64,000 nucleotides of DNA from NCBI GenBank assembly GCA_037131245.1, contig JBAXRK010000001.1, positions 88,385 through 152,384 of the forward strand. Reading direction: 5' to 3'. The DNA is from Candidatus Omnitrophota bacterium. Lineage in GTDB: Bacteria > Omnitrophota > Gorgyraeia > Zapsychrales > Fredricksoniimonadaceae. Positions 20,600-59,623 of the stretch are shown here, piece by piece. The translations under genes and the position numbers were made by a program. The first letter of the stretch is position 1, and every line of letters begins with the position of its first letter. Under the pieces are notes generated by a model, which saw only the letters and a program-made list of their open reading frames with translations, searched no databases and had not been told where the DNA came from.

Positions 20600-20605
20600 A
20601 TATTT

Positions 20606-20627
20606 ATTGTCTCCCCCGAGAGACAAT
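20606..20627 (-). promoter_or_regulatory. Hairpin covering the giant gene's Shine-Dalgarno sequence
   Basis: The minus strand reads ATTGTCTC-tcgggg-GAGACAAT, an 8-bp perfect stem. The GGGGGAG SD lies in the loop and 3' arm, and the hairpin ends 7 nt before the ATG. Confidence 0.35.
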
Positions 20628-20630
20628 CGA

Positions 20631-20658
20631 AGTATAGCACATGTCAAGTGTCAAGCAA
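20631..20658 (-). promoter_or_regulatory. Candidate sigma70-type promoter for the giant gene
   Basis: The minus strand has TTGCTT (plus-strand 20653-20658), a 16-nt spacer, then TATACT (plus-strand 20631-20636). The -10 element ends about 30 nt upstream of the ATG. A TTGACA also overlaps the spacer. Confidence 0.35.
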
Positions 20659-20732
20659 ATTTTGTGCGAAAATAATTGGTTTTTTATTTCGTTACACACC
20701 AACGACTTACGCTCCAAAAGAAAACATTTTCT

Positions 20733-20765
20733 CGAAAAAAGACGTCCCCGTGTCAGGACGTCCCC
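20733..20765 (-). terminator. Terminator-like or attenuator-like hairpin with a U6 tail in the region upstream of the giant gene
   Basis: The minus strand reads GGGGACGTCctgacacGGGGACGTCTTTTTT. GACGTCC can pair with GGACGTC to give a 7-bp stem and an 8-nt loop, followed by T6. The same sequence also reads as a 9-nt direct repeat (20741-20749 and 20757-20765). Confidence 0.35.
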
Positions 20766-20825
20766 AATATAACCAATAAAAATTAGTTTATTATTAAGAA
20801 CTGTTGAACAATTTGTTAAGCGCTC

Positions 20826-20854
20826 CAGTATGGACATTGTTTTTCTAATGTCCA
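20826..20854. promoter_or_regulatory. Palindrome 1 of the TGGACATT motif family
   Basis: The sequence reads cagtaTGGACATTgtttttctAATGTCCA, with 8-nt perfect arms (20831-20838 and 20847-20854) and an 8-nt spacer. Related half-sites are cagacTGGACAAT (20871-20883) and cagaaTGGACAAC (20963-20975). Confidence 0.5.
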
Positions 20855-20895
20855 AAAACAACTTTTCGTCCAGACTGGACAATTATATAAAGTAC

Positions 20896-20933
20896 AAAAA
20901 CCTTTTCCGGTAAACATCACCAGAAAAGGTTTT
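20896..20933 (-). terminator. Rho-independent terminator after the tadC-like gene
   Basis: The minus-strand RNA reads AAAACCUUUUCUGG-ugauguuua-CCGGAAAAGGUUUUUGU. That gives a 10-14 bp stem with one G-U pair, a 9-nt loop and a U-rich tail. It begins 45 nt after the stop at 20978. Confidence 0.55.
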
Positions 20934-20957
20934 GGACATTTCATATAAAAATGTCCA
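20933..20957. promoter_or_regulatory. Palindrome 2 of the TGGACATT motif family
   Basis: The sequence reads TGGACATTtcatataaaAATGTCCA, with 8-nt perfect arms and a 9-nt spacer. It lies between the tadC-like stop codon and the terminator stem. Its centre is about 102 bp from the centre of palindrome 1. Confidence 0.5.
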
Positions 20958-20977
20958 TTCATCAGAATGGACAACGT

Positions 20978-21880
20978 TTACTTTCCGCCAAGCCCCGCCA
21001 TCGGATTATTCATCACGAAGTCAAGGAAGATCGGGGCACCAACCAGAATAAAGACCACCGGGAAGATGAAGAATAGCAAAGGCACCAGCATCTTAAGAGG
21101 CGCCTTAAGGGCCATCGCCTCCCCGCGCCTGAACCGGGCAATCCGCATATCTTCCGAAAGAATGTTCAAGGCCTCACTAACCGACGTACCCATTTTATCA
21201 GCCTGAATAAGCGTTCGGGCAAAAGTCGACAAGTCGGGAATTTCGTACTTCTTGGCCATATCGCGCAAAGCGTCACGCCGCGGCTTTCCCACACTGATCT
21301 CTTTAAGGATATTGTCCATTTCCCGGTTTATCACCGAGTCGCCGGACTTCTCCACCACCCACTTGAGCGCCATCATGAAGTCCAGCCCCGCGTTCACGCA
21401 AAGGCCCAGCAAGTCCACCGAATCCGGCAGAAGGCGCACAATATCGTCCTTGATCTTGCCGATCTTGGAGCGCAAGATCAGCTCCGGCCCCATATAGCCC
21501 ACCGCGATCGAGATAATAATGCCGAAAAACATCAAGTCCGGGGGCATGGTGTTCGGAAGCACCAAGAGCATTACCCCCACCAAAAGCACCTTGATCATCA
21601 TGAACGTCTCGGGAGTCATGTCAGTCTGGGAAATATTAAGGTCACGCACCAACCGTTTACGCATTTCCGGGCCGACCAGCGGCTTCACAATAACAGAAGC
21701 CGCGTTAAGCAGGAAAAACCGGTCTATTTTCTTTTTTTCCTCTTTGGGCTTGACCGTGATGGGCATAATGCCCAGCCCTTTAAGGTTCAGTGAGGGCCGC
21801 TCATCCTTGACCACCGGCGAAAGGCCGAGGAAAAGCAAGGAAATGAACAGAAAAATGAAGATCATGGCCGCTGTGAGCAT
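20978..21880 (-). CDS. tadC: Type II secretion F-domain (GspF/TadC-like) pilus platform protein
   Basis: The product is 300 aa with an ATG start. It has an N-terminal TM, a cytoplasmic T2SSF-like core (LPDSVDLLGLCVNAGLDFMMALKWVVEK...RRDALRDMAKKY...FARTLIQADKMGTSVSEALNILSEDMR) and C-terminal TM helices. It is the second of two paralogs, as in tadB-tadC pairs. Confidence 0.8.
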   Translation of the reverse strand: MLTAAMIFIFLFISLLFLGLSPVVKDERPSLNLKGLGIMPITVKPKEEKKKIDRFFLLNAASVIVKPLVGPEMRKRLVRDLNISQTDMTPETFMMIKVLLVGVMLLVLPNTMPPDLMFFGIIISIAVGYMGPELILRSKIGKIKDDIVRLLPDSVDLLGLCVNAGLDFMMALKWVVEKSGDSVINREMDNILKEISVGKPRRDALRDMAKKYEIPDLSTFARTLIQADKMGTSVSEALNILSEDMRIARFRRGEAMALKAPLKMLVPLLFFIFPVVFILVGAPIFLDFVMNNPMAGLGGK

Positions 21881-21895
21881 ATTAAAGCAATTTCC

Positions 21896-22753
21896 TCAAA
21901 TATCCTTAAAACTGCTGATCTTGATGATCAAAAACGTCCCTACCACCCATAAACCCAAACAGACCATCATCAGCGTCCGCCCCAGGTCGCTGGAGGTCAT
22001 GGTATGAAAATACCCCGGATTGGTGGAATTGACCATGAAAAAGAAGCCCACCGGGAGGCCGCTCATTACCAACGCCTGGATCTTGCCCTGAACGGTCAAA
22101 ACCGCCAGGCTTTCCTCTACCTTCTTGCGCTCACGGATATTACCCACAATACGGGTGAAAATGACCGGCAAATTACCGCCTGTCTCGCGCGCCAGCAAAA
22201 TAGCGCTGATCATCTGCTGCATGGAAGGCGAGGGGTTGCGTTTATAAAGGCGGTTGAACGCTTCGTCCATGGTAACGCCCATTTTGTTCTCGCCCAGCAC
22301 GATGCTGAATTCCTGACGGATCGGCTCGGGCATTTCCTCGGCCACCGCTTCCATGGACTGGATAAGGCTAAGGCCCCCGCGGAACGAGCTCGACATGATC
22401 ATCAGCGCGTCCACCAGTTGGCTATTGAACATATCGCGTCGTTTGGAAAGCAGCATCCCGGCATAGAAACGCGGCAAAATAAAACCAAGCCCGCAGCCAG
22501 CCCCCATAGCAATAAGCTGGAACCCTTGCGGCCCGAACATGTAACCGGCCGCGCCCAGGGCGATGGGGGCAATGTAATAAAGGGGGGTGATGCGCTTAAC
22601 ATCGTCCTGCATCAGCGAGCGGTCCATATCGGCCACCAGCTTGCTGGCTCGTTCCTTGTTCAAGTCCATATACAACTTGATAAAGAAAGGCACGCCGGAA
22701 TAGGCAAAAAGCGACACGAACAGGAACATCAACAGGGAAATGACGAAAAGCAT
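21896..22753 (-). CDS. tadB: Type II secretion F-domain (TadB-like) pilus platform protein
   Basis: The product is 285 aa with an ATG start. It has N-terminal TM helices, a T2SSF-like core (QLVDALMIMSSSFRGGLSLIQSMEAVAEEMPEPIRQEF...AILLARETGGNLPVIFTRIVGNIRERKK) and C-terminal TM helices. Confidence 0.8.
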   Translation of the reverse strand: MLFVISLLMFLFVSLFAYSGVPFFIKLYMDLNKERASKLVADMDRSLMQDDVKRITPLYYIAPIALGAAGYMFGPQGFQLIAMGAGCGLGFILPRFYAGMLLSKRRDMFNSQLVDALMIMSSSFRGGLSLIQSMEAVAEEMPEPIRQEFSIVLGENKMGVTMDEAFNRLYKRNPSPSMQQMISAILLARETGGNLPVIFTRIVGNIRERKKVEESLAVLTVQGKIQALVMSGLPVGFFFMVNSTNPGYFHTMTSSDLGRTLMMVCLGLWVVGTFLIIKISSFKDI

Positions 22754-22786
22754 TCCGGATCTATCCCGAGATAATATTAACGAGTG

Positions 22787-23149
22787 TTAACCTTGATTCG
22801 AAACATTGGCCTGGCTGTTGAAACAGCCGGCGGTGCAATCGAGCATCAGCTGGTTCCCGCAGCCGGACCCGCTGCTCTTACAGTTACGTTGAGCGAACAA
22901 ATGATCGTAGCAGGCTTCCGAATACCAAACGCCGTTCACCGAGGCTTTATCATCAAAAGCGCAGGCGATGGTATCATCGGGGCTGTACTGACGGCCGTAA
23001 GCGAACGTTTCGCTGGTGGTCGCCATCTGCCCGTAATAAGCGCGCTGGAAATACCCGCGAAATACCGTGAGCCCCCCAATGATCACCAGGAGCAGCAGGA
23101 TATATTCCATGACCGCAAAACCTTTGGCCTTTGAGCGCCTTTTGATCAT
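22787..23149 (-). CDS. Cys-rich Flp/TadE-type pseudopilin-like protein (120 aa)
   Basis: The N-terminus MIKRRSKAKG|FAVMEYILLLLVIIGGLTVF fits the G/xxxxEY Flp-type prepilin motif. The C-terminal domain has 6 Cys. GGGAGG SD precedes ATG 23149. Confidence 0.65.
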   Translation of the reverse strand: MIKRRSKAKGFAVMEYILLLLVIIGGLTVFRGYFQRAYYGQMATTSETFAYGRQYSPDDTIACAFDDKASVNGVWYSEACYDHLFAQRNCKSSGSGCGNQLMLDCTAGCFNSQANVSNQG

Positions 23150-23166
23150 TTTATCCGGCCTCCCGC

Positions 23167-25806
23167 TTAATTCTTGTAATAATCTCCGGTTTCAACAGGG
23201 CACGCGTCTTTACAATTGATGAATTTCATTCTCATACTGCTATCCGGCTGATAAGCATAATACTTCGCGCAAACCTCGGTAACGAACCCGCGGCGCACCG
23301 CGCTCGCCACCGCGTCGGCACAATCCATGCCGTACCTGTTGGTATAATCCTCGTCCTTGTTGACCATAAAGGAATTCGGAATGTAATACGTAAGGCCGCC
23401 CACTACCACCTTATCGCGGTTAAAACACGCCTCGAGATCTTTCGGCTTCGTGGGCCTATTGTCATACGCCGGATGGCCGGAAAGAATCGTCCATAACTCC
23501 AGGTTATTAAGGAAGCTCAGCGTTTTGCTCAGCCGGTCTTCATCCCAGCGGGTAATGCGCGTTTTCACGCAGCCAACGCCGTCCGCCAGCTCATAACAAC
23601 GCGTCGTTTCCCCACGCTTTTCGGTCTTGATCCAGGGGAACTGCTTCGCGTAGCAGGCTTTTGAATTATCCCCGCCGCGCTCATTGATCCACCAGCGGCA
23701 GCGCTTGGGCGTCGCCAATTCCACCTTGACCAGGTGGCGGTAGCCGCGCTGTTTACCCACATTGGCCGATTGCCAACCGTAAATGACATACGGGCTGATC
23801 GCCGCCGACTCGGTTTCCTGCGTGGCATCATAAGTCAACTTCGCCAAATAAGCAAGTCGATCGCCTTCCTTGGCTCCGGGAAAAATGCCCACCATCTTCT
23901 TTGACCCCATCATGCAATCCGCCGGCACCAGGGCCCTGGAGCAATCAAAAGCCAACATCGCGTGCGGAAAATGCGTCACGAAAGCTTTCGCCGGTACCGC
24001 GGCGGCCAGCAGGTCGGCCTGGCCATCGCCTGCCAGAGAAGGCGCGTTAAAATCCAGCGTCGCATCGGAATTGTAAAGCATCCCGTCAATAGTCGTCAAA
24101 CTGCTCTTGAGGACCTGCAAACTTGGCAACACACTTTCATTGGAAGCAGCCCCCGGGTTCCACAACAACTTCCCGTACTGCACGGGATTGGCCTTAAACA
24201 AGATCTGGGCACTCCAACCGGTGAACTTGGAGAAAACCTGCCAGAAATCACGCAAATATCCCACATTCGCGTCGAACTGATCGTTGAGCCACTGCCCCTG
24301 ACCAGCCGCGGTCAGCGCATCGCAATTACACAAAGAGCCGATACCTGCCTCATACGTCGCGGCCGCTTGAGAGGGATCCTGACAAATGGGCTTATCCACC
24401 GGGAGCCAATCGAAATCGCAACGAGTATTATGCGCCGCGAAATAATAAAGCGAGTTATCCGGATTCAGCTTGACATTGCGCATGCAAAAACGATTGTCCC
24501 CGGGACGCCAGCGGTTCTGGGTGGTCGGCACCGCCGCCAGCGTATCATCATCACTGAGCGCGGTCGATGACAGCGTGGCGCAGGTGGCGGTCAACCCGGC
24601 GCTGGGATTATAAAAGTAGCCGAGCTTGGCGCGATTACCAGTGAAAATATCCTTGGTCGCGCCCCCCAGATTAGCGTCGACCGCGTCTTTGAGCTTCCAC
24701 AAGAAAGGAAACAGATAGCCCTGTTCAGGCGCAGCATTATCTTGGGCCGCGTCCAGATCACGGAGCATCACCCGCTCCTTACCCAGCAATACAGCAACCG
24801 TGTCTTTGTCCGTGGCCCAAGGGGTCGCGCCATCGGTGGTTAATTTCCCATCTGACAGTACAATAGGGGAAACACAACGCAGTGCATCAAAATTATAGGG
24901 ATATTGCAGGTACGGTGTGCTCAATGGCTTGGTCAGGCAATCCGAACCAGCCTTCGTGATCCTGTCATTTTCAAAATAAAGTTTTTTATTACCCCTGTAA
25001 TAACAATCCGAATTGCCTCCGGGATAAACCGAGCAATCGGCCATGGTCTTGGTATCCATCCCCAGGTCCATCAGAAAATCTTTCATCTCATTGTAAAGCA
25101 GCGTGAACGCGATCGAATTGGTGTTAATATTCCCCAGGCGCGCGGTATTATGATAGACAAACCGGGAAACGAGCTCCTTACGGTCCGAACCAGCCAGGCC
25201 GGGAACATTGTACTTCCCGTTCTGGTTATAATCGAGCAGGTCGGGGATCTGCTCGGTATCCGTCTGGATCGCTCTGATCGCGGTTTGAATGGACGCTTCC
25301 AGGAACGCGTCCTCGGACGTCGTGATATTCTGCTGCTCCTTGTTCCACATCGCCGTTATCTGCGGCTGGATATAAGCCATCTGCAAAGCCAGCGTGGCAA
25401 CGGTCAAGACCAGCGCGATGGTCAAGGCAATAACGATCGTCGCCAGCGACACCGCCGCCGTCCCGATCCCTACCATCACGGCGCTCATGGCCACACCCGC
25501 GGCGCCGCAGGTAAAGATACACAAAACAATGATAACAATAATGAGGACGATCATGATAATGATCCCCAGCACCCCGTTCTCATCGCATTTCTCGATCTTG
25601 CCATCGAGATACTCGGCCATCTGCTTCTCCGCGTAACTGGCCATGCGCGACACCAGCTCGGCCGTAACCTGCGTGGCGGCAACCTGCGCCTGCGTTTTAA
25701 CCACGACCGAGCGGTTCCAGTTCATGACCATCGCCATGAATACCAGCGCCAGCGCGATGGCCACCATGAACATCAGGGATACCTGGGCTTTTTTATTATG
25801 CAACAT
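23167..25806 (-). CDS. Very large TadG-like membrane protein with a Cys-rich extracytoplasmic domain (about 879 aa)
   Basis: The N-terminus MLHNKKAQVSLMFMVAIALALVFMAMVMNWNRSV resembles the TadE/G-like N-terminal helix. A further hydrophobic block follows (GIIIMIVLIIVIIVLCIFTCGAAGVAMSAVMVGIGTAAVSLATIVIALTIALVLTVATLAL). After that come about 700 aa containing roughly two dozen Cys. The track start at 25809 is TTG, but ATG 25806 with an AGGAAAGG SD is preferred. Confidence 0.6.
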   Translation of the reverse strand: MLHNKKAQVSLMFMVAIALALVFMAMVMNWNRSVVVKTQAQVAATQVTAELVSRMASYAEKQMAEYLDGKIEKCDENGVLGIIIMIVLIIVIIVLCIFTCGAAGVAMSAVMVGIGTAAVSLATIVIALTIALVLTVATLALQMAYIQPQITAMWNKEQQNITTSEDAFLEASIQTAIRAIQTDTEQIPDLLDYNQNGKYNVPGLAGSDRKELVSRFVYHNTARLGNINTNSIAFTLLYNEMKDFLMDLGMDTKTMADCSVYPGGNSDCYYRGNKKLYFENDRITKAGSDCLTKPLSTPYLQYPYNFDALRCVSPIVLSDGKLTTDGATPWATDKDTVAVLLGKERVMLRDLDAAQDNAAPEQGYLFPFLWKLKDAVDANLGGATKDIFTGNRAKLGYFYNPSAGLTATCATLSSTALSDDDTLAAVPTTQNRWRPGDNRFCMRNVKLNPDNSLYYFAAHNTRCDFDWLPVDKPICQDPSQAAATYEAGIGSLCNCDALTAAGQGQWLNDQFDANVGYLRDFWQVFSKFTGWSAQILFKANPVQYGKLLWNPGAASNESVLPSLQVLKSSLTTIDGMLYNSDATLDFNAPSLAGDGQADLLAAAVPAKAFVTHFPHAMLAFDCSRALVPADCMMGSKKMVGIFPGAKEGDRLAYLAKLTYDATQETESAAISPYVIYGWQSANVGKQRGYRHLVKVELATPKRCRWWINERGGDNSKACYAKQFPWIKTEKRGETTRCYELADGVGCVKTRITRWDEDRLSKTLSFLNNLELWTILSGHPAYDNRPTKPKDLEACFNRDKVVVGGLTYYIPNSFMVNKDEDYTNRYGMDCADAVASAVRRGFVTEVCAKYYAYQPDSSMRMKFINCKDACPVETGDYYKN

Positions 25807-25818
25807 CAAAGGCCTTTC

Positions 25819-26082
25819 CTATTTTTTGAACAGGGCCGCGTCGATCGGCCGCGGCTGATGAAAATTAGGGTTCAACTGTTTTTCCACATCGAACGTTTCA
25901 TAGATCCCGCCGCCAAAATTAATATACGTGTTCGAGGTCAACACCTGCTCATGATCGTAGCGCCGTTCCGCCAGGTCCACCATGGACCAGCGCACGGTCT
26001 GGATCATCCCGAACACAAGGACCATCAGGACAATGCAGGCAAAACAAAATTCGATCATGGCTTGCGCGCGGGTATTGTTCAT
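25819..26082 (-). CDS. TadE-like pseudopilin (87 aa)
   Basis: The N-terminus MNNTRAQAMIEFCFACIVLMVLVFGMIQ matches a TadE-like N-terminus, with a Glu 5 residues after the A|Q position. Its ATG overlaps the upstream stop codon (ATGA). Confidence 0.6.
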   Translation of the reverse strand: MNNTRAQAMIEFCFACIVLMVLVFGMIQTVRWSMVDLAERRYDHEQVLTSNTYINFGGGIYETFDVEKQLNPNFHQPRPIDAALFKK

Positions 26083-27647
26083 TTAAGCCCCAGCGTTGAC
26101 TTTAACTCCCCGACATCGTTATTGCTGATCCACATCTTGCCGCGATTATCGCGGATACGGCTGCGGATGAACAGCGTGCGGCTATTCATGTCGAAACAGG
26201 TCTTGAGGACATTTTTCTCTTTCATGCAACAGCCGCCCTGGCCGACCGGGGTTAATTCCGGCCAAATGCTGCCATCTGGGTTGTCGGTCTCGTTCTGGCA
26301 GGCCACTTCCACGGAACCACGCTCCTTATTATCGTAATACGTCTTCCAGACGCTGTTACGCTCCATGAAACTCCAGGGCCAGGTCATGCGGCGGTTCAAT
26401 TGCCACACACGAGAAATAATATCGAGCGTACGCTTCTTGTTAACGCTCATCACCAGTTTATCCGTACCGGGCACGAACGCACGGCCGCGGCGGATCTCCA
26501 TGACCGTTCCATCCTCGACCTGCGTATAAATATTCGACTCCATCTTAAGCCCCGACGCATCATCCGGATTGCTCCAGCCATCGACCGGCTCCCCGCCCAT
26601 ATCGCCGCCTTGAGGGTCCTGGATCAACAGATCGACCACTTTGTCGGGAAGGCACACGTCCTTTGCCAGGTTACCATACAACACCGCATTATTCTCAACG
26701 GTTGGAAAAACCAGCTCATCCTGACGGTCGCCGTTCACGTCCACGTAAAAATAGTCAACACTATCGTCTAACGCTTTTTGTGTCAAATTCTTGACCGGAA
26801 TATCGCCTTTGACCGGAGTCACATTCGCCCATTTCCATAAAGCCTGGTCCATGCGCGTATTACGCGTTTCCGCCATGCTCCAAAGATCGTCGCTGGTCAC
26901 CGGAACCGTCGCCCCGCCGGTGATCGTGTAATTACGATTATAGTTGTACTGCCAGTCAAAAGCAGATCCGTTAGCGAGGGTTTCATTGCTTTCCCAGCCA
27001 TTATTGCCGCGGGCCAGGTTAAGAAAGTACGTGGGTTGTACTTGATCCGCGGGCCACTCATAGGCCAGGCGCTTGTCGGCCTCGGGATCATCCGGCAGAT
27101 GGATCCCGTCCTCGCAAGCTGTACTGGAATCTTTGATCCGGGAGCGGGTCACCGTTCCATCGGAATGACGATGCAACCGCAAATAATACGCGGAACTAAG
27201 GTTGAATTCAAACTTCTGGCCATTGATCTGCACATCATAAACCGGAATGGACGTATTCCTGGGGTCTTTGCCCGAAAAATCCATATTGGGTTCCATATCA
27301 GGCCAGGTGATAGTGTACATCAACCCGATGCTCAGCGAGCCGGTGCCCGACATGATGGCCGGACGGCGGTCGATCGCGCCGTATTTCGCCGCGCCGGGGG
27401 ATATCTGATCCTGCAAAATAAAAAGGCTGACAGAATTGCGTTTGTACGTGGAAGACGCCGCGAGAGACCCGTAATGCGTCGCCTGATACGACTTGAGCAG
27501 CGCCATGCGCAGCGGCTGCAGCTGGCTCTGCTGATATTGAATGGTCGCGTACCCCTGCTGGAAAATAGACCCCAGCAAAAAAATAAAAATTGAGCCGAAA
27601 ACGGCCAATTCAATAATAGACTGGGCTTTTCGTGACAACGGACGCAT
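26079..27647 (-). CDS. Large TadE/TadF-like pseudopilin-type protein (522 aa)
   Basis: The N-terminus MRPLSRKAQSIIELAVFGSIFIFLLGSIFQQGY has a basic n-region, A|QSIIE, and one hydrophobic helix. About 480 aa of soluble, Trp/Asn/Asp-rich domain follow. AAGGGAG SD precedes the start. Confidence 0.55.
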   Translation of the reverse strand: MRPLSRKAQSIIELAVFGSIFIFLLGSIFQQGYATIQYQQSQLQPLRMALLKSYQATHYGSLAASSTYKRNSVSLFILQDQISPGAAKYGAIDRRPAIMSGTGSLSIGLMYTITWPDMEPNMDFSGKDPRNTSIPVYDVQINGQKFEFNLSSAYYLRLHRHSDGTVTRSRIKDSSTACEDGIHLPDDPEADKRLAYEWPADQVQPTYFLNLARGNNGWESNETLANGSAFDWQYNYNRNYTITGGATVPVTSDDLWSMAETRNTRMDQALWKWANVTPVKGDIPVKNLTQKALDDSVDYFYVDVNGDRQDELVFPTVENNAVLYGNLAKDVCLPDKVVDLLIQDPQGGDMGGEPVDGWSNPDDASGLKMESNIYTQVEDGTVMEIRRGRAFVPGTDKLVMSVNKKRTLDIISRVWQLNRRMTWPWSFMERNSVWKTYYDNKERGSVEVACQNETDNPDGSIWPELTPVGQGGCCMKEKNVLKTCFDMNSRTLFIRSRIRDNRGKMWISNNDVGELKSTLGLK

Positions 27648-27670
27648 TGACGCCTGGCTCCCTTTAGCCG

Positions 27671-27994
27671 TTAATAATGCCCTATCTGAGTGACCCCGTT
27701 CTTGGTCTCTTTGGACGATGAGGAATCCGAACGGGCGGTGTAATAACCGGCAGCCCCGTCCTTGGACGCCTTGATGACCTGCAAGCGCGATTCCGAATTC
27801 GACTGCATGCCGTGCGTGATCACGCTATTGGTCTTGTCGAGGTCATACTGCTCGCCGATGCCGTCCACCGATTCTTTCCAATGGCCCTGCACGCCGCGTT
27901 TGATATACATTTGCATCGTCAGCAAAGCCGCAATGATCACGATCAGCAGGATCACGTACTCCATCAGGCTCTGCCCGCGCGTTGAAGGTCGCAT
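27671..27994 (-). CDS. Flp-type prepilin paralog 7 (107 aa)
   Basis: The sequence reads MRPSTRG|QSLMEYVILLIVIIAALLTMQMYIKRGVQGHWKESVDGIGEQYD. AAGGGGGA SD precedes the start. The track start at 28000 is TTG, and ATG 27994 is preferred. Confidence 0.7.
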   Translation of the reverse strand: MRPSTRGQSLMEYVILLIVIIAALLTMQMYIKRGVQGHWKESVDGIGEQYDLDKTNSVITHGMQSNSESRLQVIKASKDGAAGYYTARSDSSSSKETKNGVTQIGHY

Positions 27995-27996
27995 GA

Positions 27997-28320
27997 TCAA
28001 TCCCCCTTTGTGAAGCCCATGTTCGTATACGAGTTGCTGGTCGTCAATGTTTCTCTGTACGTTTGCGTATCTTTCGCGCCGAAATAATCGTGCGTTATAT
28101 CCTGCCCGCTCTGCTGGGTGCTCGAATTCTGGCTTTCCGTGTACCCCTGCTCCGTATTCTGCTCCGACTGTTTCTGCTCCCCGATCTGGTCCGCTCCGGC
28201 TTTGATCAGGCTCTGCAAGCCGCGCCTGAACATCGGCGTCATCGTGGAAGCGACCACGGCAATGATCGTCAACAGCACCATATATTCGGCTAAACTCTGC
28301 GCTTTGGCCTTTTTTAACAT
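27997..28320 (-). CDS. Flp-type prepilin paralog 6 (107 aa)
   Basis: The sequence reads MLKKAKA|QSLAEYMVLLTIIAVVASTMTPMFRRGLQSLIKAGADQIGEQ. It has the same architecture as its neighbours. Confidence 0.7.
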   Translation of the reverse strand: MLKKAKAQSLAEYMVLLTIIAVVASTMTPMFRRGLQSLIKAGADQIGEQKQSEQNTEQGYTESQNSSTQQSGQDITHDYFGAKDTQTYRETLTTSNSYTNMGFTKGD

Positions 28321-28327
28321 AGCCGCC

Positions 28328-28678
28328 TCACTGGGACAAACCCGGTTGCAGCTGATTGCTCACGTAAAAGGTCCCCGATTCCGACTCCATGGTGCGATTG
28401 ATCTCCCCGCCGGCGATCCCGCGTGAGCGGTCCGCCTTCGAGCTGTTGGTCCTCGACGACGTCATCGTATAGTACGGCTCGTACTCCGCTCTCACTTTCG
28501 TCCCCAGCGCGGCTGAAGCGTCAGCCATGATCTTGCGCTGGCCGTCGTAGACCCGCGCCTGGAACGCCCGCCGTAAATAAACGGTCATCACCGATAAAGC
28601 CCCGACCATCAAAATAGCGGCCAGAACGTATTCACCACTGACGGCCTGCCCTTTTTTGGACCTGAAATTTTTCAGCAT
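28328..28678 (-). CDS. Flp-type prepilin paralog 5 (116 aa)
   Basis: The sequence reads MLKNFRSKKG|QAVSGEYVLAAILMVGALSVMTVYLRRAFQARVYD. AGGAG SD lies 4 nt before ATG 28678. The 138-aa track ORF is an upstream extension that runs through a terminator hairpin. Confidence 0.7.
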   Translation of the reverse strand: MLKNFRSKKGQAVSGEYVLAAILMVGALSVMTVYLRRAFQARVYDGQRKIMADASAALGTKVRAEYEPYYTMTSSRTNSSKADRSRGIAGGEINRTMESESGTFYVSNQLQPGLSQ

Positions 28679-28692
28679 ATTACTCCTGCTGT

Positions 28693-28734
28693 AAAACAAA
28701 CGAGGGCCTGCGCGCCACGCGCGCAAGGCCCTCG
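28693..28734 (-). terminator. Strong intrinsic terminator/attenuator inside the pilin array, between paralogs 4 and 5
   Basis: The minus-strand RNA reads CGAGGGCCUUGCGCGC-gug-GCGCGCAGGCCCUCG followed by UUUGUUUU. The stem is about 15 bp and GC-rich with one bulged U. The SD and ATG of the next pilin gene follow about 15 nt later. Confidence 0.65.
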
Positions 28735-28747
28735 GAAACAACAACCG

Positions 28748-29077
28748 TTACATACCCAGGTCTTTCAGGTTATCACCTTTTTCCGCGTTAAACTCGATGT
28801 TCGAGTACACATTCGTCGTCATTTCACCTCCGGCCAGCGTGCCGCTGTCCGTTGTTCCTTTGAGGCTATTGTTGTACGTGTTGCTTCTGGTCTTCGTTTC
28901 CTTGTAATAATTGGACGACGCGCCGTACTGTTCGCCGATATCATCGGTGGAGCTCTTCAAACGGCCCTGCACACCTCTTTTAACATAGGTCTGCAAGCTC
29001 AGGAGCGCCGCGATGATAATGATGATCAGGATCGCGTATTCCAGCGTGCTCTGCCCTTTTTTATTTTTTTTCATCAT
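28748..29077 (-). CDS. Flp-type prepilin paralog 4 (109 aa)
   Basis: The sequence reads MMKKNKKG|QSTLEYAILIIIIIAALLSLQTYVKRGVQGRLKSSTDDIGEQYG. A GGAGA SD precedes the start, and a strong terminator hairpin follows the gene. Confidence 0.75.
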   Translation of the reverse strand: MMKKNKKGQSTLEYAILIIIIIAALLSLQTYVKRGVQGRLKSSTDDIGEQYGASSNYYKETKTRSNTYNNSLKGTTDSGTLAGGEMTTNVYSNIEFNAEKGDNLKDLGM

Positions 29078-29127
29078 ATGCTTGTCTCCGTAATTAGCAT
29101 TCTTTATTAAACAGCCTCACGTTCTTA

Positions 29128-29484
29128 TTACCAGCCAGACTGATCGGTATTGCTGTACTCGACGCGATCCACCTGGTCTCTCTTGTTCGTATTGGTGCTC
29201 ACTTCGCCCGTCACGCTGGAACCGGACTTGCGGTTGACATCCGATGACACCTTATCCGTCTTTTCCGTACTGTTGGAATAATACGGCTCATACTGCAGCG
29301 TCGTTCCGATCCCGACATCGTTCCCGGACGATGTTGCCATGTACTTGCTCGTATCGCGCACGCGCGCCTGAAGGGCACGCTGGGCATACGTCTGCATCGC
29401 CACCACGCCACCAATAACCAGCGCGATCAAAATGGCGTATTCCGCCGTGTTCTGCGCCTTCTTGTTACGAATATTTTTCAACAT
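29128..29484 (-). CDS. Flp-type prepilin paralog 3 (118 aa)
   Basis: The sequence reads MLKNIRNKKA|QNTAEYAILIALVIGGVVAMQTYAQRALQARVRD. An AAAGGAGA SD precedes the start. Confidence 0.7.
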   Translation of the reverse strand: MLKNIRNKKAQNTAEYAILIALVIGGVVAMQTYAQRALQARVRDTSKYMATSSGNDVGIGTTLQYEPYYSNSTEKTDKVSSDVNRKSGSSVTGEVSTNTNKRDQVDRVEYSNTDQSGW

Positions 29485-29539
29485 AGATTTCTCCTTTTAA
29501 CTCATTTAAGATACACGTTTCTTCATCATCCGCCTGTGA

Positions 29540-29728
29540 TCACTGGAACGTGTCCGTCAGCTTGCCCGACACAGTCTCCATGGCGCCCGTTGTCGTGTTC
29601 AGCGTCTTGTTAAGCGACGACTTGAACGGCGAACCGGGGGACACCAAAAACGCGACGATCGCCACCACGACGGCCGTCATCAGGATGATGTACTCAAGGG
29701 TACTTTGCCCTCTCTTGTTCTTTAACAT
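29540..29728 (-). CDS. Flp-type prepilin paralog 2 (62 aa, classic Flp size)
   Basis: The sequence reads MLKNKRG|QSTLEYIILMTAVVVAIVAFLVSPGS.... GGAGG SD lies 7 nt before ATG 29728. The 111-aa track ORF is an upstream extension. Confidence 0.75.
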   Translation of the reverse strand: MLKNKRGQSTLEYIILMTAVVVAIVAFLVSPGSPFKSSLNKTLNTTTGAMETVSGKLTDTFQ

Positions 29729-29763
29729 TGTCGTTCCTCCGTTGAACTGTAGATGAATGATAA

Positions 29764-29916
29764 CTATTCTTTTGAGTATTCCTCTGAAAGGTCCTTCTGT
29801 TTGGCCTGCACGGCCCGGTACACATAGGTGCTCATGGCGGCCACCGCCGCCGATACGATCGCCACGACGAGACAATACTCAATTAGATTCTGCCCTTTTG
29901 TCCCTTTGATCCTCAT
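29764..29916 (-). CDS. Flp-type prepilin paralog 1 (50 aa, classic Flp size)
   Basis: The sequence reads MRIKGTKG|QNLIEYCLVVAIVSAAVAAMSTYVYRAVQAKQKD.... AGGTGG lies upstream of ATG 29916. The 128-aa track ORF is an extension through the leader region. Confidence 0.7.
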   Translation of the reverse strand: MRIKGTKGQNLIEYCLVVAIVSAAVAAMSTYVYRAVQAKQKDLSEEYSKE

Positions 29917-33818: not shown

Positions 33819-35175
33819 GAACCCCTTCCCCGGCGCTCGCGGCCAGAACAGCCACCGTCGCCTCACTGACCTTCTTGCGCCGGAACTTGCGCGCGACCAC
33901 CCGCAATCCGTCCGCCTCCAATACCTCGCCCCCCTTGCTCTCATCGAGCCCGTGGGCCGCGCACCAGTCGGCGAATTTACCGTCAAGGGCGCCGCTGTAA
34001 GCCGCGCCAACCTGCTGGGCAATAGCCGACATCAAAACACCGCCCCCCACGATCCAGCCGCCGGCGAAAGCGTGAATATGCGCCGGAAGGCGGTCGAACT
34101 CGTCCTCGATCTCGCCCACCAGCTCCTCGATAATATCCTCCAGCGCGACCATCGCCACCAGCCGGCCCGACTGTCCCAGAAAGCCGGGAGCGCGCGCGGG
34201 ATCAGGCTTGCCGCTGACCAGCATGATATGCAACTTCTCCTTGATCATCATCTCGAGGGCCTGGGAAATGGATGTGTCCGCGCTCACCGCCTTGATGGGG
34301 CGGATAATGCCCCGGATCGACGGATCATTAGGATTGATCTTAAGCGCCGCGATAATATCCTTAAAATTCACATAACCGATCACTGATTGCAAGTCGCCCT
34401 CCGTCTCGAGGACCGGGAAGCGCGTGTGCATATCCATATGCGCGCGCACCAGCGCCTGCGACAGCGAACTGCCCGCCCCGATCATGGAAACATCCTGCAA
34501 GGGAAGGCTGATCTCCCGCACCTGCCGTGACGATAATTGCGCGGCCGCGATCAGGATCTTCTCCTGATGCGACCCGATCAGGCGCGCCGTGCGGGCGAGC
34601 GCCGCCGCCGCCTGCAACTCGTGCAAACCGGGGTCGTCGTCAAAATTCCGCGCGTTCTTGCCCCACCCCATGCTGGCGATGATCCACTTGACGATACGCT
34701 CGAAGAGCCGCACCACCGGATGCATTAAAAAGAACAGCGTCTTCATGGCCGGCGAAAGCTGCATGCACACCCGCTCACGATTATTAAGCGCGATCATTTT
34801 CGGTACCAGCTCGGCAAAGATAGTGGTGACCGCGCTGAGCGGCAGAACAAAACATACCAGCGCAAGGACGTCCGCCCCAGCTTTCGGCAAATGCAGCTTA
34901 TCGGCGAACACCGGCGACAGCATGTCGGCCATGCTCAGGCCGCCCGTCGCCGCGGCGATCGCGCTGGCCAGCGCGATACCCAGCTGAATGACCGCCAGGC
35001 TGGCCTCCATATTGTTCTTCATGAAATGCGCTTCTTCCGCGCCCTTTACCTTGCGCGCCACCAGCACATGGACGCGGGCAAGCGATATGGACGCCAGCGC
35101 CATCTCATAGGCGGCGAAGATACCGGTGACCACCAGCATTAAAAGGATCAGGATCAGTTCAATCAAGATCGTCAT
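33811..35175 (-). CDS. CNNM/DUF21-CBS domain transporter (HlyC/CorC family)
   Basis: The N-terminus is a DUF21-like multi-TM block (MTILIELILILLMLVVTGIFAAYEMALASIS). A CBS-pair region follows, with LEDIIEELVGEIEDEFD. Its ATG overlaps the cysI stop (ATGA). Confidence 0.8.
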   Translation of the reverse strand: MTILIELILILLMLVVTGIFAAYEMALASISLARVHVLVARKVKGAEEAHFMKNNMEASLAVIQLGIALASAIAAATGGLSMADMLSPVFADKLHLPKAGADVLALVCFVLPLSAVTTIFAELVPKMIALNNRERVCMQLSPAMKTLFFLMHPVVRLFERIVKWIIASMGWGKNARNFDDDPGLHELQAAAALARTARLIGSHQEKILIAAAQLSSRQVREISLPLQDVSMIGAGSSLSQALVRAHMDMHTRFPVLETEGDLQSVIGYVNFKDIIAALKINPNDPSIRGIIRPIKAVSADTSISQALEMMIKEKLHIMLVSGKPDPARAPGFLGQSGRLVAMVALEDIIEELVGEIEDEFDRLPAHIHAFAGGWIVGGGVLMSAIAQQVGAAYSGALDGKFADWCAAHGLDESKGGEVLEADGLRVVARKFRRKKVSEATVAVLAASAGEGVHG

Positions 35176-36839
35176 GCTTTTACGATCCCCGCTCGATGAA
35201 CAAAATCGCCGAAAGATTCCCCCTGACGGCGGTCTTTGGCGAAGCGGGACAGCACGTCCCTGAGATGGGCCAGGATATCAGCCTCACCGAGCATTTCTTT
35301 GTAAAGGGTGCTAAGCCGGTCACCTGAATGGCTCGCGCCCAGATAAAGATTGTATTTGCCCGGCGCGCGGCCGATAAAGCCGATCTCGCCCAGCGGCGAG
35401 CGCGCGCACCCGTTGGGGCAGCCGGTCATACGGATATTGATCGGCACATCTTTCAGGCCAAGCTCCGCCAGGACAGGATCAAGCTTGTCCATGAGTGACG
35501 GCAGGTAAGTCTCTCCGTCGGCAAACGCGAGCGGGCAAACCGGCATGGCCACGCACGCCAGGCCGCTGCCGCGAGCGCCCGACACCTGCTGATGGGCACT
35601 GATACCATGTTCATCAAGCAGGGCCTGTAGCGCCGGCTTCGCCGCTTCGCTAACACCTGCGATGATCACGTTCTGGTTACCGGTCACGATAAAGCTTCCC
35701 TGATGGGCGCGCGCGATCTCCCGCAGCCCCGTTCTTAACGGATAACCCGGCGCGTCCTTCACCCGGCCGCCTTCGACAAAAAGCGTTATATGCCACCGGC
35801 CATCCTCGCCCTGCTGCCAGCCGTAAGCGTCATTATTGGTCTTAAATTTATAATCCCGGGCGGGCGCCAGCGGCGCTCCCAGGCGCTTCTCCACCTCGGC
35901 CTTGAAACCGGCGACAGTCAATTTTTCAACAGTATATTTCACGCGGGCCTGCTTGCGATTGGAGCGGTTGCCGTGGTCGCGCTGGACCAGCAGGATCTTT
36001 TCGCACACATTGACCGCCTGGCTGCGCGGGACATACCCGATCACGCTGCCCAGGCGGGCGAACGTTTCCGGCATCCCGAACGTGCAGCTCATGCCACCGC
36101 CGACGGCCACGTTAAAGCCCACCAGCTCGTTCTTTTCCACGATCGCGATGAGCCCGATATCGTTGGCGAACACATCCGTGTCATTCACCGGCGGCACCGC
36201 CAGCGCGATCTTGAATTTGCGCGGCAAATACGTCTCCCCGTAGATCGGCTCATGGTCGGCCCCCGCCGGCTTGACGTCCAGCCAAAGCTCACGGTAGGCG
36301 GATGTTTTCGGCGATAAATGGGTGTGGATCGCTTTCGCTACCTGCTGCGCCTCAGCGTGCACGCGGCTGAGGTGCGGATTAGCGCTGGCCATCACATTGC
36401 GGTTAACGTCGCCGCAGGCCGCCAGGGTATCGAGCAGGGTGTCATTGATCCCCTTGATCGCTTTTTTCAAATGGCGCTTGCGCACGCCGTGGAGCTCCAC
36501 CGCCTGGCGGGTGGTCAGCTTGAGCGTCCCGCTACCGTAAAGGCTGCTTAGCTCATCGAGCCCCAGCCACTGGGCCGGCGTCAGAACCCCCGCCGGAATG
36601 CGCACCCGGATCATGAACGAATACAGCGGCTCGAGCTTCTGCTTGCGCCGTTCGCTCTCGGAGGGGCGGTCCCACTGCATGTACGTGCCATGGAACTTGA
36701 TCAGCTGCAGGTCGTCAGGATAAAGCGCGCCGGTCACTTCATCGGCCAGGCTTTCCTTGATGGTCCCGCGCAGATAGCGGCTTTTGGTCTTGATCACTTC
36801 AACGTCGCTCAACGGCTGAGGGTCATTATTTATTGCCAT
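35172..36839 (-). CDS. cysI: Assimilatory sulfite reductase (NADPH) hemoprotein beta subunit
   Basis: The product is 555 aa. The N-terminus SRYLRGTIKESL...LIKFHGTYMQWDR is characteristic. The siroheme/4Fe-4S cysteines are present as CVAMPVC (Cx5C) and GCPNGCARS (Cx3C). Confidence 0.9.
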   Translation of the reverse strand: MAINNDPQPLSDVEVIKTKSRYLRGTIKESLADEVTGALYPDDLQLIKFHGTYMQWDRPSESERRKQKLEPLYSFMIRVRIPAGVLTPAQWLGLDELSSLYGSGTLKLTTRQAVELHGVRKRHLKKAIKGINDTLLDTLAACGDVNRNVMASANPHLSRVHAEAQQVAKAIHTHLSPKTSAYRELWLDVKPAGADHEPIYGETYLPRKFKIALAVPPVNDTDVFANDIGLIAIVEKNELVGFNVAVGGGMSCTFGMPETFARLGSVIGYVPRSQAVNVCEKILLVQRDHGNRSNRKQARVKYTVEKLTVAGFKAEVEKRLGAPLAPARDYKFKTNNDAYGWQQGEDGRWHITLFVEGGRVKDAPGYPLRTGLREIARAHQGSFIVTGNQNVIIAGVSEAAKPALQALLDEHGISAHQQVSGARGSGLACVAMPVCPLAFADGETYLPSLMDKLDPVLAELGLKDVPINIRMTGCPNGCARSPLGEIGFIGRAPGKYNLYLGASHSGDRLSTLYKEMLGEADILAHLRDVLSRFAKDRRQGESFGDFVHRAGIVKA

Positions 36840-36851
36840 AAGGTTCCCTTA

Positions 36852-38681
36852 TTAATAAACGTCCTCGAGGTAACGGCCCGATCGCTTCAGGCCCTTCACG
36901 TATTCCTCCGCTTTCACGCGGGTGAAACCACCCTCCTGCTCGGCCACCTCAATGAGCGCGTTGCACACATCCGGCGCCATGCGTTTGGTGTCTCCGCAAA
37001 CATAAAGGTACGCCCCGTCTTCGATCCAGGCAAAAACATCCTTCGCGTTCTTGAGGATCTTGTGCTGCACATAACACTTTTCCTGCTGGTCGCGGGAGAA
37101 CGCCACGTCCAGCCTGGTGAGCGCGCCGCTCTTAAGGTGCGCCTGCCAATCGGTCTGATAAAGAAAATCAGTCTCGAAATGCGGATTGCCGAAGAACAAC
37201 CAGCTGCGCCCCGTGTCGCCGCGCGCCGCGCGCTCCTCGACAAAAGCCCGGAACGGCGCCACGCCCGTGCCCGGCCCCACCATAATGACCGGCACTTCGC
37301 CGTCAGCGGGAAGGCGAAAGCCTTCATTGGCTTTGATGTACACCGGAACCTGTTCATTCTCCATGATCCGGTCCGCCCAGAACGTGGAACCCACGCCCTC
37401 TTTCTGCCGGCCGAACGCGTTATAGCGCACCGCGCTGACCAGAATATGCACCTCATCCGTGTACGTCAGCGGGCTTGAGGCGATCGAATACAAACGCCCC
37501 GGAATAGGCCGCAGGACGGTCAGCAAGTCGGCCGCCGTGTACGTTACCGGATAATCCTTGAGCAAGTCAATAATATCCCGGCCGTAAAGATATTCGCGCA
37601 ACCGCGCCACGTCGAAAAGCAACTCATTGAGCTCTTTGCTGCCGGCGAAGGAATTATGCTTCTTGAGCACGTCCGGCGTCAGCACAGTCAGTTCATAACC
37701 GCGCAGCGCATCCGCTAGCGTTTCTGATGTCGGCAGGCGCTCACCGCCCCGCAAATTCAGGTGCGTGAGCACGTCCACGACCAACCGGTCGGAATTGCGC
37801 GGGAGTAACCCGCAAGCATCACCCGGCTGATACGTCAGCCCCGACCCTTCGAGGGAAAGCTCGATGTGGTACGTCTCTTTTTCCGACCCGGCGGCGTTCA
37901 CGTTCACTTTCGACAGGACAGTGGCCAGGAACGGATTTTTCGCCGAATAAGGTACCGCGCCGGCCGCAGGCAACCGAACGGCCGCCATTGGGGCAGTGGT
38001 GAGGGTCGCGGTCACCGGCCCGGCGATCTTCTTCAGCGCTTCCAGCGCGGCTGTCAACCAGCGCTCGGCGCTATCATTAAAATCAACATCACAGTCCATC
38101 CGGTCAACCAGGCGGGCCGCCCCGCAACGCTCCAGCGCGGCGTCGAGATCAATGCCGGCCTTACAAAAATGGACATACGACTTGTCACCCAGCGCCAGCA
38201 CCGAAAAATGGACGCCCTCCAGCCGCGGCGCGCGATTGCCACCCAGGAACTCGAACAGTTCCTCGGCCGCTGCCGGCGGCACGCCTTCGCCATGCGTGCT
38301 AATGATCGCGAAAATGTTCTTTTCATTCTTAAGGTCCCGGACCTTATAGGCGCCCATATTGCACACCTTGACCTTGAACCCGGCCTTCTCGGCTTCCGTC
38401 TGGACTTTCTTGGCAAAACCTTTGCCGTTGCCGGAATGAGAGGCCACCAATACCGTCAATTCCGGGGCCGACGCCGCTGCCGTTCCCGCGGGCAAGGCGC
38501 CGCCATGGGCCGCGGCGGCAAAAGCCTCCGCCAGCTGATGCTGCACCTGTGCCGCGCCGGCAAAATAGCCTGCCAGCCACGACAACTGCTCCCGGCTGAA
38601 TTTATCGGCCGATTCACCGACCAGGCGGTTAACGTCGACAGTCCCTGAATGCTTTAAGATCTCCTGCGCTTCTTTTTCCAT
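36852..38681 (-). CDS. cysJ: Sulfite reductase (NADPH) flavoprotein alpha subunit
   Basis: The product is 609 aa. The N-terminal half is flavodoxin-like (LTVLVASHSGNGKGFA). It carries the FAD motif RLYSIASSP, the NADPH motif VIMVGPGTGVAPFRAF, and a C-terminal GRYLEDVY. Confidence 0.9.
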   Translation of the reverse strand: MEKEAQEILKHSGTVDVNRLVGESADKFSREQLSWLAGYFAGAAQVQHQLAEAFAAAAHGGALPAGTAAASAPELTVLVASHSGNGKGFAKKVQTEAEKAGFKVKVCNMGAYKVRDLKNEKNIFAIISTHGEGVPPAAAEELFEFLGGNRAPRLEGVHFSVLALGDKSYVHFCKAGIDLDAALERCGAARLVDRMDCDVDFNDSAERWLTAALEALKKIAGPVTATLTTAPMAAVRLPAAGAVPYSAKNPFLATVLSKVNVNAAGSEKETYHIELSLEGSGLTYQPGDACGLLPRNSDRLVVDVLTHLNLRGGERLPTSETLADALRGYELTVLTPDVLKKHNSFAGSKELNELLFDVARLREYLYGRDIIDLLKDYPVTYTAADLLTVLRPIPGRLYSIASSPLTYTDEVHILVSAVRYNAFGRQKEGVGSTFWADRIMENEQVPVYIKANEGFRLPADGEVPVIMVGPGTGVAPFRAFVEERAARGDTGRSWLFFGNPHFETDFLYQTDWQAHLKSGALTRLDVAFSRDQQEKCYVQHKILKNAKDVFAWIEDGAYLYVCGDTKRMAPDVCNALIEVAEQEGGFTRVKAEEYVKGLKRSGRYLEDVY

Positions 38682-38693
38682 TTAAACCCTTTC

Positions 38694-45199: not shown

Positions 45200-45200
45200 C

Positions 45201-47539: not shown

Positions 47540-47542
47540 AAA

Positions 47543-57208: not shown

Positions 57209-57223
57209 AAGAGGCTTTCCTTC

Positions 57224-57565: not shown

Positions 57566-57655
57566 ACAACCCCCACCCGTAACAACGTTAGAATTAAATT
57601 TACCCGTAATTTTATTACGTATTCCCCGTTCCAACAAGGTAATTCAACAGCGCGT

Positions 57656-59614: not shown

Positions 59615-59623
59615 CCGCCACCC

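Follow-up and report, generated by a model that had tools for sequence, protein, structure and literature searches.

Gene content of the locus

The 64,000-nucleotide window analysed here, 64 kb of one 247-kb contig of a Candidatus Omnitrophota metagenome-assembled genome (MAG), carries on its minus strand, from position 29916 down to 20978, a Tad/Flp-like pilus gene cluster that lies upstream of a giant gene. An earlier note on this DNA had described seven tandem pilin paralogs of 50-118 amino acids (aa), larger pseudopilins and a platform pair, and we found all of these genes where it had placed them. The block comprises 13 genes, namely seven small pilin-like genes (p1 to p7), four further prepilin-like genes (coding for proteins of 522, 87, 880 and 120 aa) and the genes of the platform proteins TadB and TadC (Table 1). 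Intergenic gaps from p1 to TadC range from -4 to 69 bp (the 87-aa gene overlaps the 522-aa gene by 4 bp), and the genes therefore form a single operon-like block.

A six-frame motif scan of the window found 11 N-termini resembling those of class III signal peptide proteins, as compared to a mean of 0.37 in thirty shuffles of the sequence. Nine of the 11 are in the cluster, where the filter of the scan missed the 120-aa gene. No T2SSE ATPase, secretin or A24 prepilin peptidase is encoded in the 64 kb, as judged from a Pfam search of all open reading frames (ORFs) from 180 aa upwards, from the gaps, which were inspected, and from a scan for the A24 motif. RcpC/CpaB is missing from the window as well; in orthologous loci it is present, together with the RcpA/CpaC secretin.

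Table 1. Coordinates of the pilus cluster and of the features next to it. The arrow marks the presumed cleavage site of the prepilin-like proteins.
Feature	Position in window	Strand	Remarks
up600 gene, 577 aa	30183..31916	-	soluble; N-terminal transposase-type helix-turn-helix (HTH); conserved upstream neighbour
p1, 50-aa Flp-type pilin	29764..29916	-	KG↓QNLIEY
p2, 62-aa short pilin	29540..29728	-	RG↓QSTLEY
p3, 118-aa long pilin	29128..29484	-	KA↓QNTAEY
p4, 109-aa long pilin	28748..29077	-	KG↓QSTLEY; YVKRGVQG; IGEQ
p5, 116-aa long pilin	28328..28678	-	KG↓QAVSGEY; Glu at +6
p6, 107-aa long pilin	27997..28320	-	KA↓QSLAEY; IGEQ
p7, 107-aa long pilin	27671..27994	-	RG↓QSLMEY; YIKRGVQG; IGEQ; NCBI WCO69_00040
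522-aa prepilin-like protein	26079..27647	-	KA↓QSIIEL
87-aa TadE-like pseudopilin	25819..26082	-	RA↓QAMIEF
880-aa Cys-rich prepilin-like membrane protein	23167..25809	-	KA↓QVSLMF; without Glu5
120-aa Cys-rich pseudopilin	22787..23149	-	KG↓FAVMEY; 6 Cys
TadB-like platform protein, 285 aa	21896..22753	-	one T2SSF domain
TadC-like platform protein, 300 aa	20978..21880	-	one T2SSF domain
Spacer, 378 bp	20600..20977	-	terminator-like hairpins and promoter-like sites
Giant gene, 5' part, at least 6,866 codons	2..20599	-	ATG at 20599; frame open to window position 2
Module features in relatives (fusion ATPase; secretin with TonB_C)	L004 638-2794; L008 5585-7390; L006 1047-3212; L009 7993-12172		positions in the respective loci

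The seven small pilins

Each of the seven small proteins has a Lys/Arg-rich leader that ends in G↓Q or A↓Q and is followed by E-Y and by about 20 hydrophobic residues. Two further motifs had been reported in the earlier note and were recovered: Y-x-K/R-R-G/A-x-Q is matched exactly by p4, p5 and p7 and almost exactly by p1, p3 and p6, and IGEQ is present in p4, p6 and p7.

The size (about 50-60 aa) and the G↓xxxxEY motif of a Flp-type pilin are present in p1 and p2. p1, which is 84% identical to its ortholog in locus L002 (L numbers denote loci of the survey described below), keeps G↓Q and Glu5 in 38/38 orthologs. Against Pfam Flp_Fap the window copy scored 20.1 bits (E 5.7e-4; cut-off 32.2 bits), and 21 of the 57 members of a combined set of p1 and 87-aa orthologs matched the family, the best with an E value of 3e-6. 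p1 has the size of a Flp pilin, opens the operon and is better conserved than any other of the pilins, which makes it our candidate for the major (bulk) pilin. p2 matched Pfam Class_IIIsignal (PF04021) with 25.3 bits, above the cut-off of 23.7 bits, and its motif is kept in 41/41 orthologs.

As regards the long pilins, A↓Q and Glu5 of p3 are found in all 42 orthologs, and p4 gave a sub-threshold score against Class_IIIsignal (16.4 bits). Orthologs of p5 carry the Glu at +6, one residue later than in the other Glu-bearing subunits, in 37 of the 40 species. The p7 family gave 2,253 database matches, every named one being from Omnitrophota, and many p7 orthologs carry precomputed PF04021 matches. 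p7 itself would be 109 aa long if started at an upstream TTG. Its AlphaFold2 model, obtained with a 79-sequence alignment, shows a helix at residues 10-48 and two strands at 55-78 and 81-104, with a mean predicted local distance difference test (pLDDT) score of 72.8. On this model, the long pilins are predicted to consist of an N-terminal helix and a long beta-hairpin with about 24 residues per strand. A Foldseek comparison of the p7 model with PDB folds gave nothing significant, the best matches (E 0.14) being long hairpins of pore-forming and ring-forming proteins. When a profile of all the pilins was compared to PDB sequences, the sole match was to Geobacter type IVa pilins, at their N-terminus (E 0.0045).

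Larger prepilin-like subunits

Motif statistics over the ortholog families show that position -1 is G or A across species, that nearly every member of ten prepilin-like families has Gln at +1, and that Glu occupies +5 in nine of the families. No NCBIfam family was matched by any of the eleven prepilin-like proteins of the window, and the 522-, 880- and 120-aa proteins, despite their prepilin N-termini, found no family in Pfam either.

The 522-aa protein has one predicted transmembrane (TM) helix, at its N-terminus, followed by a domain of about 480 aa of no recognised fold. Orthologs are found in 52 loci, 50 of which keep A/G↓Q and Glu5. The 87-aa protein scored 19.3 bits against Pfam TadE (E 0.0013; cut-off 22.9 bits), and 10 of the 57 members of the combined ortholog set matched this family (best E 2e-5). 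The earlier note had applied TadE/F/G-like labels to three proteins of the cluster. For the 87-aa protein the label is in line with the TadE matches among its orthologs, the window copy itself scoring below the cut-off; for the 522- and 880-aa proteins, what lies behind it is a prepilin-like N-terminus, with no profile match.

The 880-aa protein, identical to NCBI WCO69_00025, is the largest subunit of the set. It had been described as a protein of about 879 aa with extra TM helices and roughly two dozen Cys, and we counted 24 Cys and three predicted TM helices, two of which (80-98 and 119-137) lie beyond the N-terminal one. Across 48 orthologs the family has G↓Q with a hydrophobic residue at +5. 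A structure model based on a 5-sequence alignment was uninformative (mean pLDDT 32.9). The 120-aa protein, also singled out earlier as a Cys-rich pseudopilin, has Glu5 in 54 of 55 orthologs.

Platform proteins and family placement

The two genes at the end of the block are the T2SSF pair that the earlier note had recognised. The TadB-like protein has a single match to Pfam T2SSF (E 7.8e-16), and so has the TadC-like protein (E 2.4e-16); two separate single-domain T2SSF proteins indicate the TadB/TadC arrangement. TadB is 49-80% identical to its orthologs in 80 Omnitrophota species-representative loci; for TadC and its orthologs the identity is 50-78%.

The reading of the cluster as a Tad/Flp (type IVc) system is supported by this pair, by the Flp_Fap, Class_IIIsignal and TadE matches of p1, p2, the 87-aa protein and their orthologs, by the eleven prepilin-type N-termini and by the tight gene spacing. 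It is also supported by the orthologous loci, which carry CpaB/RcpC, a secretin and a TadZ-like::CpaF ATPase upstream. The stronger profile matches of p1 and the 87-aa protein to Flp_Fap and TadE are found among the orthologs, the copies of the window scoring below the cut-offs.

With canonical Tad/Flp loci (Aggregatibacter tad, Caulobacter cpa) the cluster shares the Flp-size pilin with G↓xxxxEY, the TadE-like pseudopilin and the two single-domain T2SSF proteins, whereas CpaB/RcpC, the secretin and the TadZ-like and CpaF-type ATPase domains are shared by the orthologous loci and not by the window. Canonical loci contain about three to five prepilin-like genes, as compared to eleven here. Further differences are the length of five of the pilins (105-135 aa), for which a beta-hairpin is predicted, Gln at +1 throughout, the lack of a TadV gene in the locus, and an HTH protein and a giant gene as fixed neighbours; in the relatives of the window, moreover, TadZ and CpaF are fused and the secretin has a TonB_C domain.

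The K/R-G↓Q leader and Glu5 are also features of archaeal class III signal peptide pilins (PF04021, formerly DUF361; EppA-dependent, Methanococcus), the family to which p2 and many p7 orthologs were matched. The pilin pattern Q-x-S/T-x-E-x-x-x-L would correspond to the EppA substrate motif. However, the context here is that of a diderm bacterium, with a secretin, RcpC and a TadZ-like domain in the relatives and a split TadB/TadC platform.

Conservation and synteny across Omnitrophota

Omnitrophota are ultra-small, probably predatory or parasitic bacteria. Synteny was surveyed in one genome per species with the TadB alignment as query, which gave 80 loci, nearly all of them from Omnitrophota MAGs; the MAG of the window is not among them. 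The order p1-p7, about 500 aa, about 87 aa, about 880-1,600 aa, about 120 aa, TadB, TadC was found in 45 of the 46 loci whose upstream sequence was long enough. Over the 3.6 kb that precede the gene of about 500 aa, the modal number of class-III-type N-termini is seven, a count that may include the N-terminus of that gene itself. The array is also present in L002 (GCA_015232565.1) and L003 and, more distantly, in L004/L005 and L006. Each gene of the cluster has a positional ortholog in all of these, apart from the 87-aa gene, which lacks a called counterpart in L003, and the seven pilin positions are conserved one-to-one across Omnitrophota. Among these loci TadB and TadC are the best conserved proteins (50-79%) and the large ones the least (22-49%).

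The N-terminus of a giant gene was recognised downstream of TadC in 40 of the 47 loci in which 4 kb or more of sequence follow TadC. The comparison of relatives that the earlier note had proposed thus shows that pilin array, platform pair and giant gene occur together, and it supports the functional link that had been suggested from the 378-bp distance in the window. Seven loci (L015, L017, L023, L037, L044, L051, L062) have the full pilus cluster and no recognisable giant-gene N-terminus in the 4-9 kb after TadC; they are possibly exceptions to the linkage, or have longer spacers.

The motor and channel module in split and intact loci

In most of the relatives (among them L004/L008, L006, L009/L010, L012 and an ENA contig) the five genes directly upstream of the up600 ortholog code for a peptidyl-prolyl isomerase (PPIase), RcpC/CpaB, a secretin, a fusion ATPase and a DUF192 protein. 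The 3' end of this module is also visible in L020, L024, L026, L038 and L054. The PPIase belongs to Rotamase_2, RcpC/CpaB matches TIGR03177 (80.6 bits; cut-off 71 bits), and the secretin has a Pfam Secretin match and a C-terminal TonB_C domain. The ATPase is a fusion of about 720 aa, in which a ParA/MinD-like (TadZ-like) domain is joined to a CpaF-type T2SSE domain, and its best NCBIfam match is the TadA family. With a relative's protein as query, this fusion gave 7,701 database matches and 67-80% identity across the 120 best; it is far better conserved than the pilus subunits.

In contrast to these intact loci, the window, L002/L014, L003, L013 and the 285-kb contig ERZ1426827 are split, with unrelated genes upstream. 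These neighbours vary, including radical SAM and CNNM genes in the window, AbiEii with PilMN/GspM genes, a reverse-strand gene and a HEAT-repeat gene; ERZ1426827 has PEMT and CNNM neighbours in common with the window. TadB identity to the window is 79-80% in L002/L014 and L013 and 71% in L003, whereas the loci at 57-60% are intact; ERZ1426827 was found via its p7 ortholog (69% identity). The closest relatives of the window are thus split and the more distant ones intact, which indicates that the split is a trait of one lineage.

All 13 ORFs of the window are intact, and their orthologs in the four related split loci are 38-80% identical (TadB 71-80%, TadC 66-78%). This conservation within the split group argues for a system in use. 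The locus is thus a split one, rather than an obviously reduced one, with its motor and channel genes not adjacent to the cluster. The earlier note had left it between parts encoded elsewhere and a reduced or rewired system: the former is favoured, while in the MAG itself the missing genes were not located.

The giant gene and the spacer

The frame of the giant gene leaves the window, and the gene is probably the first on the contig, cut by the contig end, to judge from the locus-tag number of the 880-aa gene (WCO69_00025). The N-terminus of the encoded protein, of at least 6,866 aa, combines a TM anchor with a C39-like peptidase domain and a polytopic membrane region, and its first 500 aa or so are 30-65% identical to the products of the genes that follow TadC in L002 (35,868 aa), L003, L004 and L006. 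The Pfam Peptidase_C39 match covers residues 237-304 (E 5.4e-6; 26.7 bits, cut-off 22 bits).

In the C39-like domain (residues about 196-300; 19700-20050, minus strand) a Cys in LNCGVYAL and a His in HFVTV occupy the positions expected for the catalytic pair. This domain was considered as a substitute for the prepilin peptidase and rejected, since it follows the first TM helix, and is thus probably outside the cytoplasm, and the pilin leaders are without a double-glycine site. Farther along the protein, at residues about 4600-4730 (about 6400-6800, minus strand), there is a Walker-A-like MAGGKTT together with FIDEVH. This candidate SecA-like P-loop region had no match in Pfam or the PDB; it might correspond to the divergent SecA-DEAD-like region that has been reported for giant proteins.

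In a consensus scan, the spacer between TadC and the giant gene shows terminator-like hairpins at 20973-20952 and 20933-20897, one of them with a 17-pair stem, and, between these and the giant gene, promoter-like sites at 20854-20827 and 20819-20790. The cluster and the giant gene may therefore be transcribed separately. Among relatives the spacer ranges from about 0.2 to 3.5 kb and varies in content, with Ank and ABC2 genes in ERZ1426827.

The up600 gene

The gene upstream of p1 (here up600) probably has its conserved start at Met15 (31874), and orthologs occupy the same position in L002, L003, L004, L006, L013 and other loci. Its family has 613 representatives at E≤0.001; when 50 members were scanned, HTH_Tnp_Tc3_2 was matched in 13 and HTH_32 in 10. 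No TM helix is predicted in the protein, and a search of the PDB with the family profile found no relative. Over about 600 aa, the HTH domain at the N-terminus is followed by a linker rich in Pro, Ala, Val and Glu and by a large C-terminal domain of no recognised fold. The position of the gene is fixed between the ATPase module and the pilins, and in split loci it stays with the pilins. We regard it as a putative regulator or partner of the cluster.

Interpretation and alternative explanations

Taken together, these data suggest, with a probability of roughly three in four, that the region is the distal half of a Tad-like apparatus of the type IVc pilus family, which has been kept upstream of Omnitrophota giant genes while the proximal module has become separated from it. 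The proximal module, that is PPIase, RcpC/CpaB, secretin, TadZ-like::CpaF ATPase and DUF192 protein, is most likely encoded elsewhere in the genome. A prepilin peptidase, also encoded elsewhere, would cut the precursors after G or A, leaving Gln at +1, and TadB/TadC with a CpaF-type ATPase would pull the subunits out of the membrane and assemble them into a polymer that passes through the secretin. In such a filament p1 would be the bulk subunit, joined by the six further conserved pilins, and the large subunit without Glu5 and its partners may prime or cap it. Attachment to prey or host, or the deployment of giant proteins, has been suggested in the published accounts of such loci (PMC10066038; 10.1101/2023.11.21.568195). 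By analogy, the filament would probably be used for attachment to prey or host cells, or would help to deploy the neighbouring giant surface protein.

Several observations weigh against this reading. The ATPase, secretin and peptidase of the window's MAG were not found in the 64 kb covered of the 247-kb contig, the MAG not being among the scanned representatives, and of the 7,701 matches of the fusion ATPase, none of the 120 best lies on a contig of the split group; two candidates that were checked came from other genomes, in which the locus is intact. The A24 peptidase was found in none of the loci examined, intact or split, so that processing of the precursors is assumed. Finally, five of the seven pilins of the window match no curated family of Pfam or NCBIfam, and p1 and the 87-aa protein score below the Pfam cut-offs.

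The strong and wide linkage of the cluster to the giant gene would also be expected if the eleven pilin-like proteins built a short periplasmic pseudopilus, similar to that of the type II secretion system (T2SS), which pushes the giant protein or its fragments through a secretin. West-Roberts et al. call the locus a secretion system (10.1101/2023.11.21.568195). As in the T2SS pseudopilins GspG-K, several minor subunits are accompanied by a large one without Glu5 beside a presumed cargo gene, and the many subunits of low-abundance type recall, from established knowledge, GspH-K. However, p1 has the size of Flp and its family matches Flp_Fap, and the platform is the split TadB/TadC type and not a two-domain GspF of about 400 aa. 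The cluster contains no GspC, L or M, position +1 is Gln here and Phe in the T2SS, and no N_methyl, GspG or Gsp family was matched in the cluster in Pfam or NCBIfam. Moreover, a TM anchor of its own at the N-terminus and numerous TM segments make the giant protein a membrane-inserted protein rather than a folded periplasmic substrate, and a terminator-like spacer separates its gene from the cluster. An exporter of this kind is accordingly unlikely.

It is similarly unlikely that the eleven-subunit machine is a dedicated deployer of the giant surface protein, in which the long pilins with their hairpins would form a sheathed filament or conduit. If this were true, filament/platform and motor/channel would be separable modules, which can be encoded apart or swapped with those of another type IV filament system.

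A swap is also what would have taken place if the pilin/platform module had lost its own secretin and ATPase and used the motor and channel of type IVa pili (T4aP) or of a T2SS. The five related loci in which the proximal module is not beside the cluster, with differing upstream neighbours, are compatible with such a loss, and L002 has the 3' end of a PilM/PilN/GspM cluster some 2 kb ahead of its up600 gene. T4aP genes are reported for most Omnitrophota by Seymour et al. (2023, PMC10066038). However, the PilMN neighbour is found in one locus only, and absence from the neighbourhood is not absence from the genome. In addition, it is established that platforms of the TadB/TadC type work with CpaF-type ATPases, and the fusion ATPase, with its thousands of matches, is widespread and conserved in the phylum. 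We therefore consider rewiring improbable. That the distal half is the non-functional leftover of a broken Tad locus, as the lack of motor and channel genes in view might suggest, is hardly credible with 13 ORFs and their signal motifs intact and with an ortholog of each gene conserved in the four split loci.

Relation to published loci and significance

The type of locus and its linkage to giant genes are already published. West-Roberts et al. (2023, bioRxiv 10.1101/2023.11.21.568195, Fig. 7A) describe, ahead of the giant genes of Omnitrophota, a conserved locus with more than ten genes of a secretion system, among them gspD, gspE, gspF, rcpC, the gene of a Rotamase_2 PPIase and numerous small genes with class III signal peptides. 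Tad complexes across Omnitrophota, including Ca. Velamenicoccus archaeovorus, are reported by Seymour et al. (2023, PMC10066038). According to a 2026 preprint, secretion or pilus genes lie beside 13 of 14 giants, and Omnitrophota proteins reach about 147,000 residues. The locus of the window has in common with the published one the phylum, the position directly in front of a giant gene of the same strand, the GspF/TadB-TadC pair and the small class III genes. In contrast, gspD, gspE, rcpC and the Rotamase_2 PPIase belong to the same locus in the description of West-Roberts et al., and they do not adjoin the cluster either in the window or in its four closest related loci. The local peculiarity is thus the lack of an adjacent proximal module.

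To the published picture the present analysis adds several details, namely the one-to-one orthology of the seven pilins, the rule of Gln at +1, the Glu at +6 of p5, the subunit without Glu5, the predicted hairpin and the HTH neighbour, none of which was found in the published descriptions, within the parts of them that concern the locus. They leave the kind of system unchanged: it is unusual with respect to textbook Tad loci and is located beside some of the largest genes known, but its core is published and the split has an ordinary explanation. The gene set in front of the giant genes is the best lead on how Omnitrophota make and deploy their giant proteins. In this respect the window is a clean example, because the giant gene is accompanied by the pilin/platform half but not by the motor/channel half, which points to the distal half as the part that is tied to the giant gene. 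The seven pilins, the Gln at +1, the paralog with Glu at +6, the capping candidate without Glu5 and the helix with its hairpin are targets for expression, imaging and structure determination.

Other features of the window

Upstream of the up600 gene the window contains radical SAM, CNNM transporter, sulfate-assimilation, glycan-related, two-component and efflux genes; a search of Rfam found no RNA families in the window. Contigs identical to this DNA are present in SRR12676967. The giant gene and the pilus cluster (1-32000) have a G+C content of 0.49-0.54, as compared to 0.58-0.61 for the upstream housekeeping genes (32000-64000), a contrast that may reflect amino-acid composition or a different history of the block. 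Antisense ORFs of 256-593 aa lie opposite real genes on the plus strand (22004-22774, 24904-26337 and 45183-46964). They are low in complexity and Arg/His-rich, and are almost certainly composition artefacts.

The sulfate-assimilation block (35172-42102, minus strand) encodes two proteins of the PAPS-reductase family (CysH- and CysD-like), a CysN/CysC-like GTPase-kinase and a flavoprotein and a haemoprotein sulfite reductase. An envelope/glycan cluster (42172-50238, minus strand) is arranged around a class I Glu/Gln tRNA synthetase, with a PEMT-like methyltransferase, a PMT-family glycosyltransferase, a polysaccharide deacetylase, a GT2 enzyme, another methyltransferase and a 587-aa polytopic membrane protein matching no family. 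The stretches 53395-61844 (minus strand) and 62032-63601 (plus strand) together carry two tripartite efflux sets, OEP-HlyD-MFS and OEP-HlyD-MacB, and then genes for an extracytoplasmic function (ECF) sigma factor, a putative anti-sigma factor and a Spy/CpxP-like periplasmic protein.

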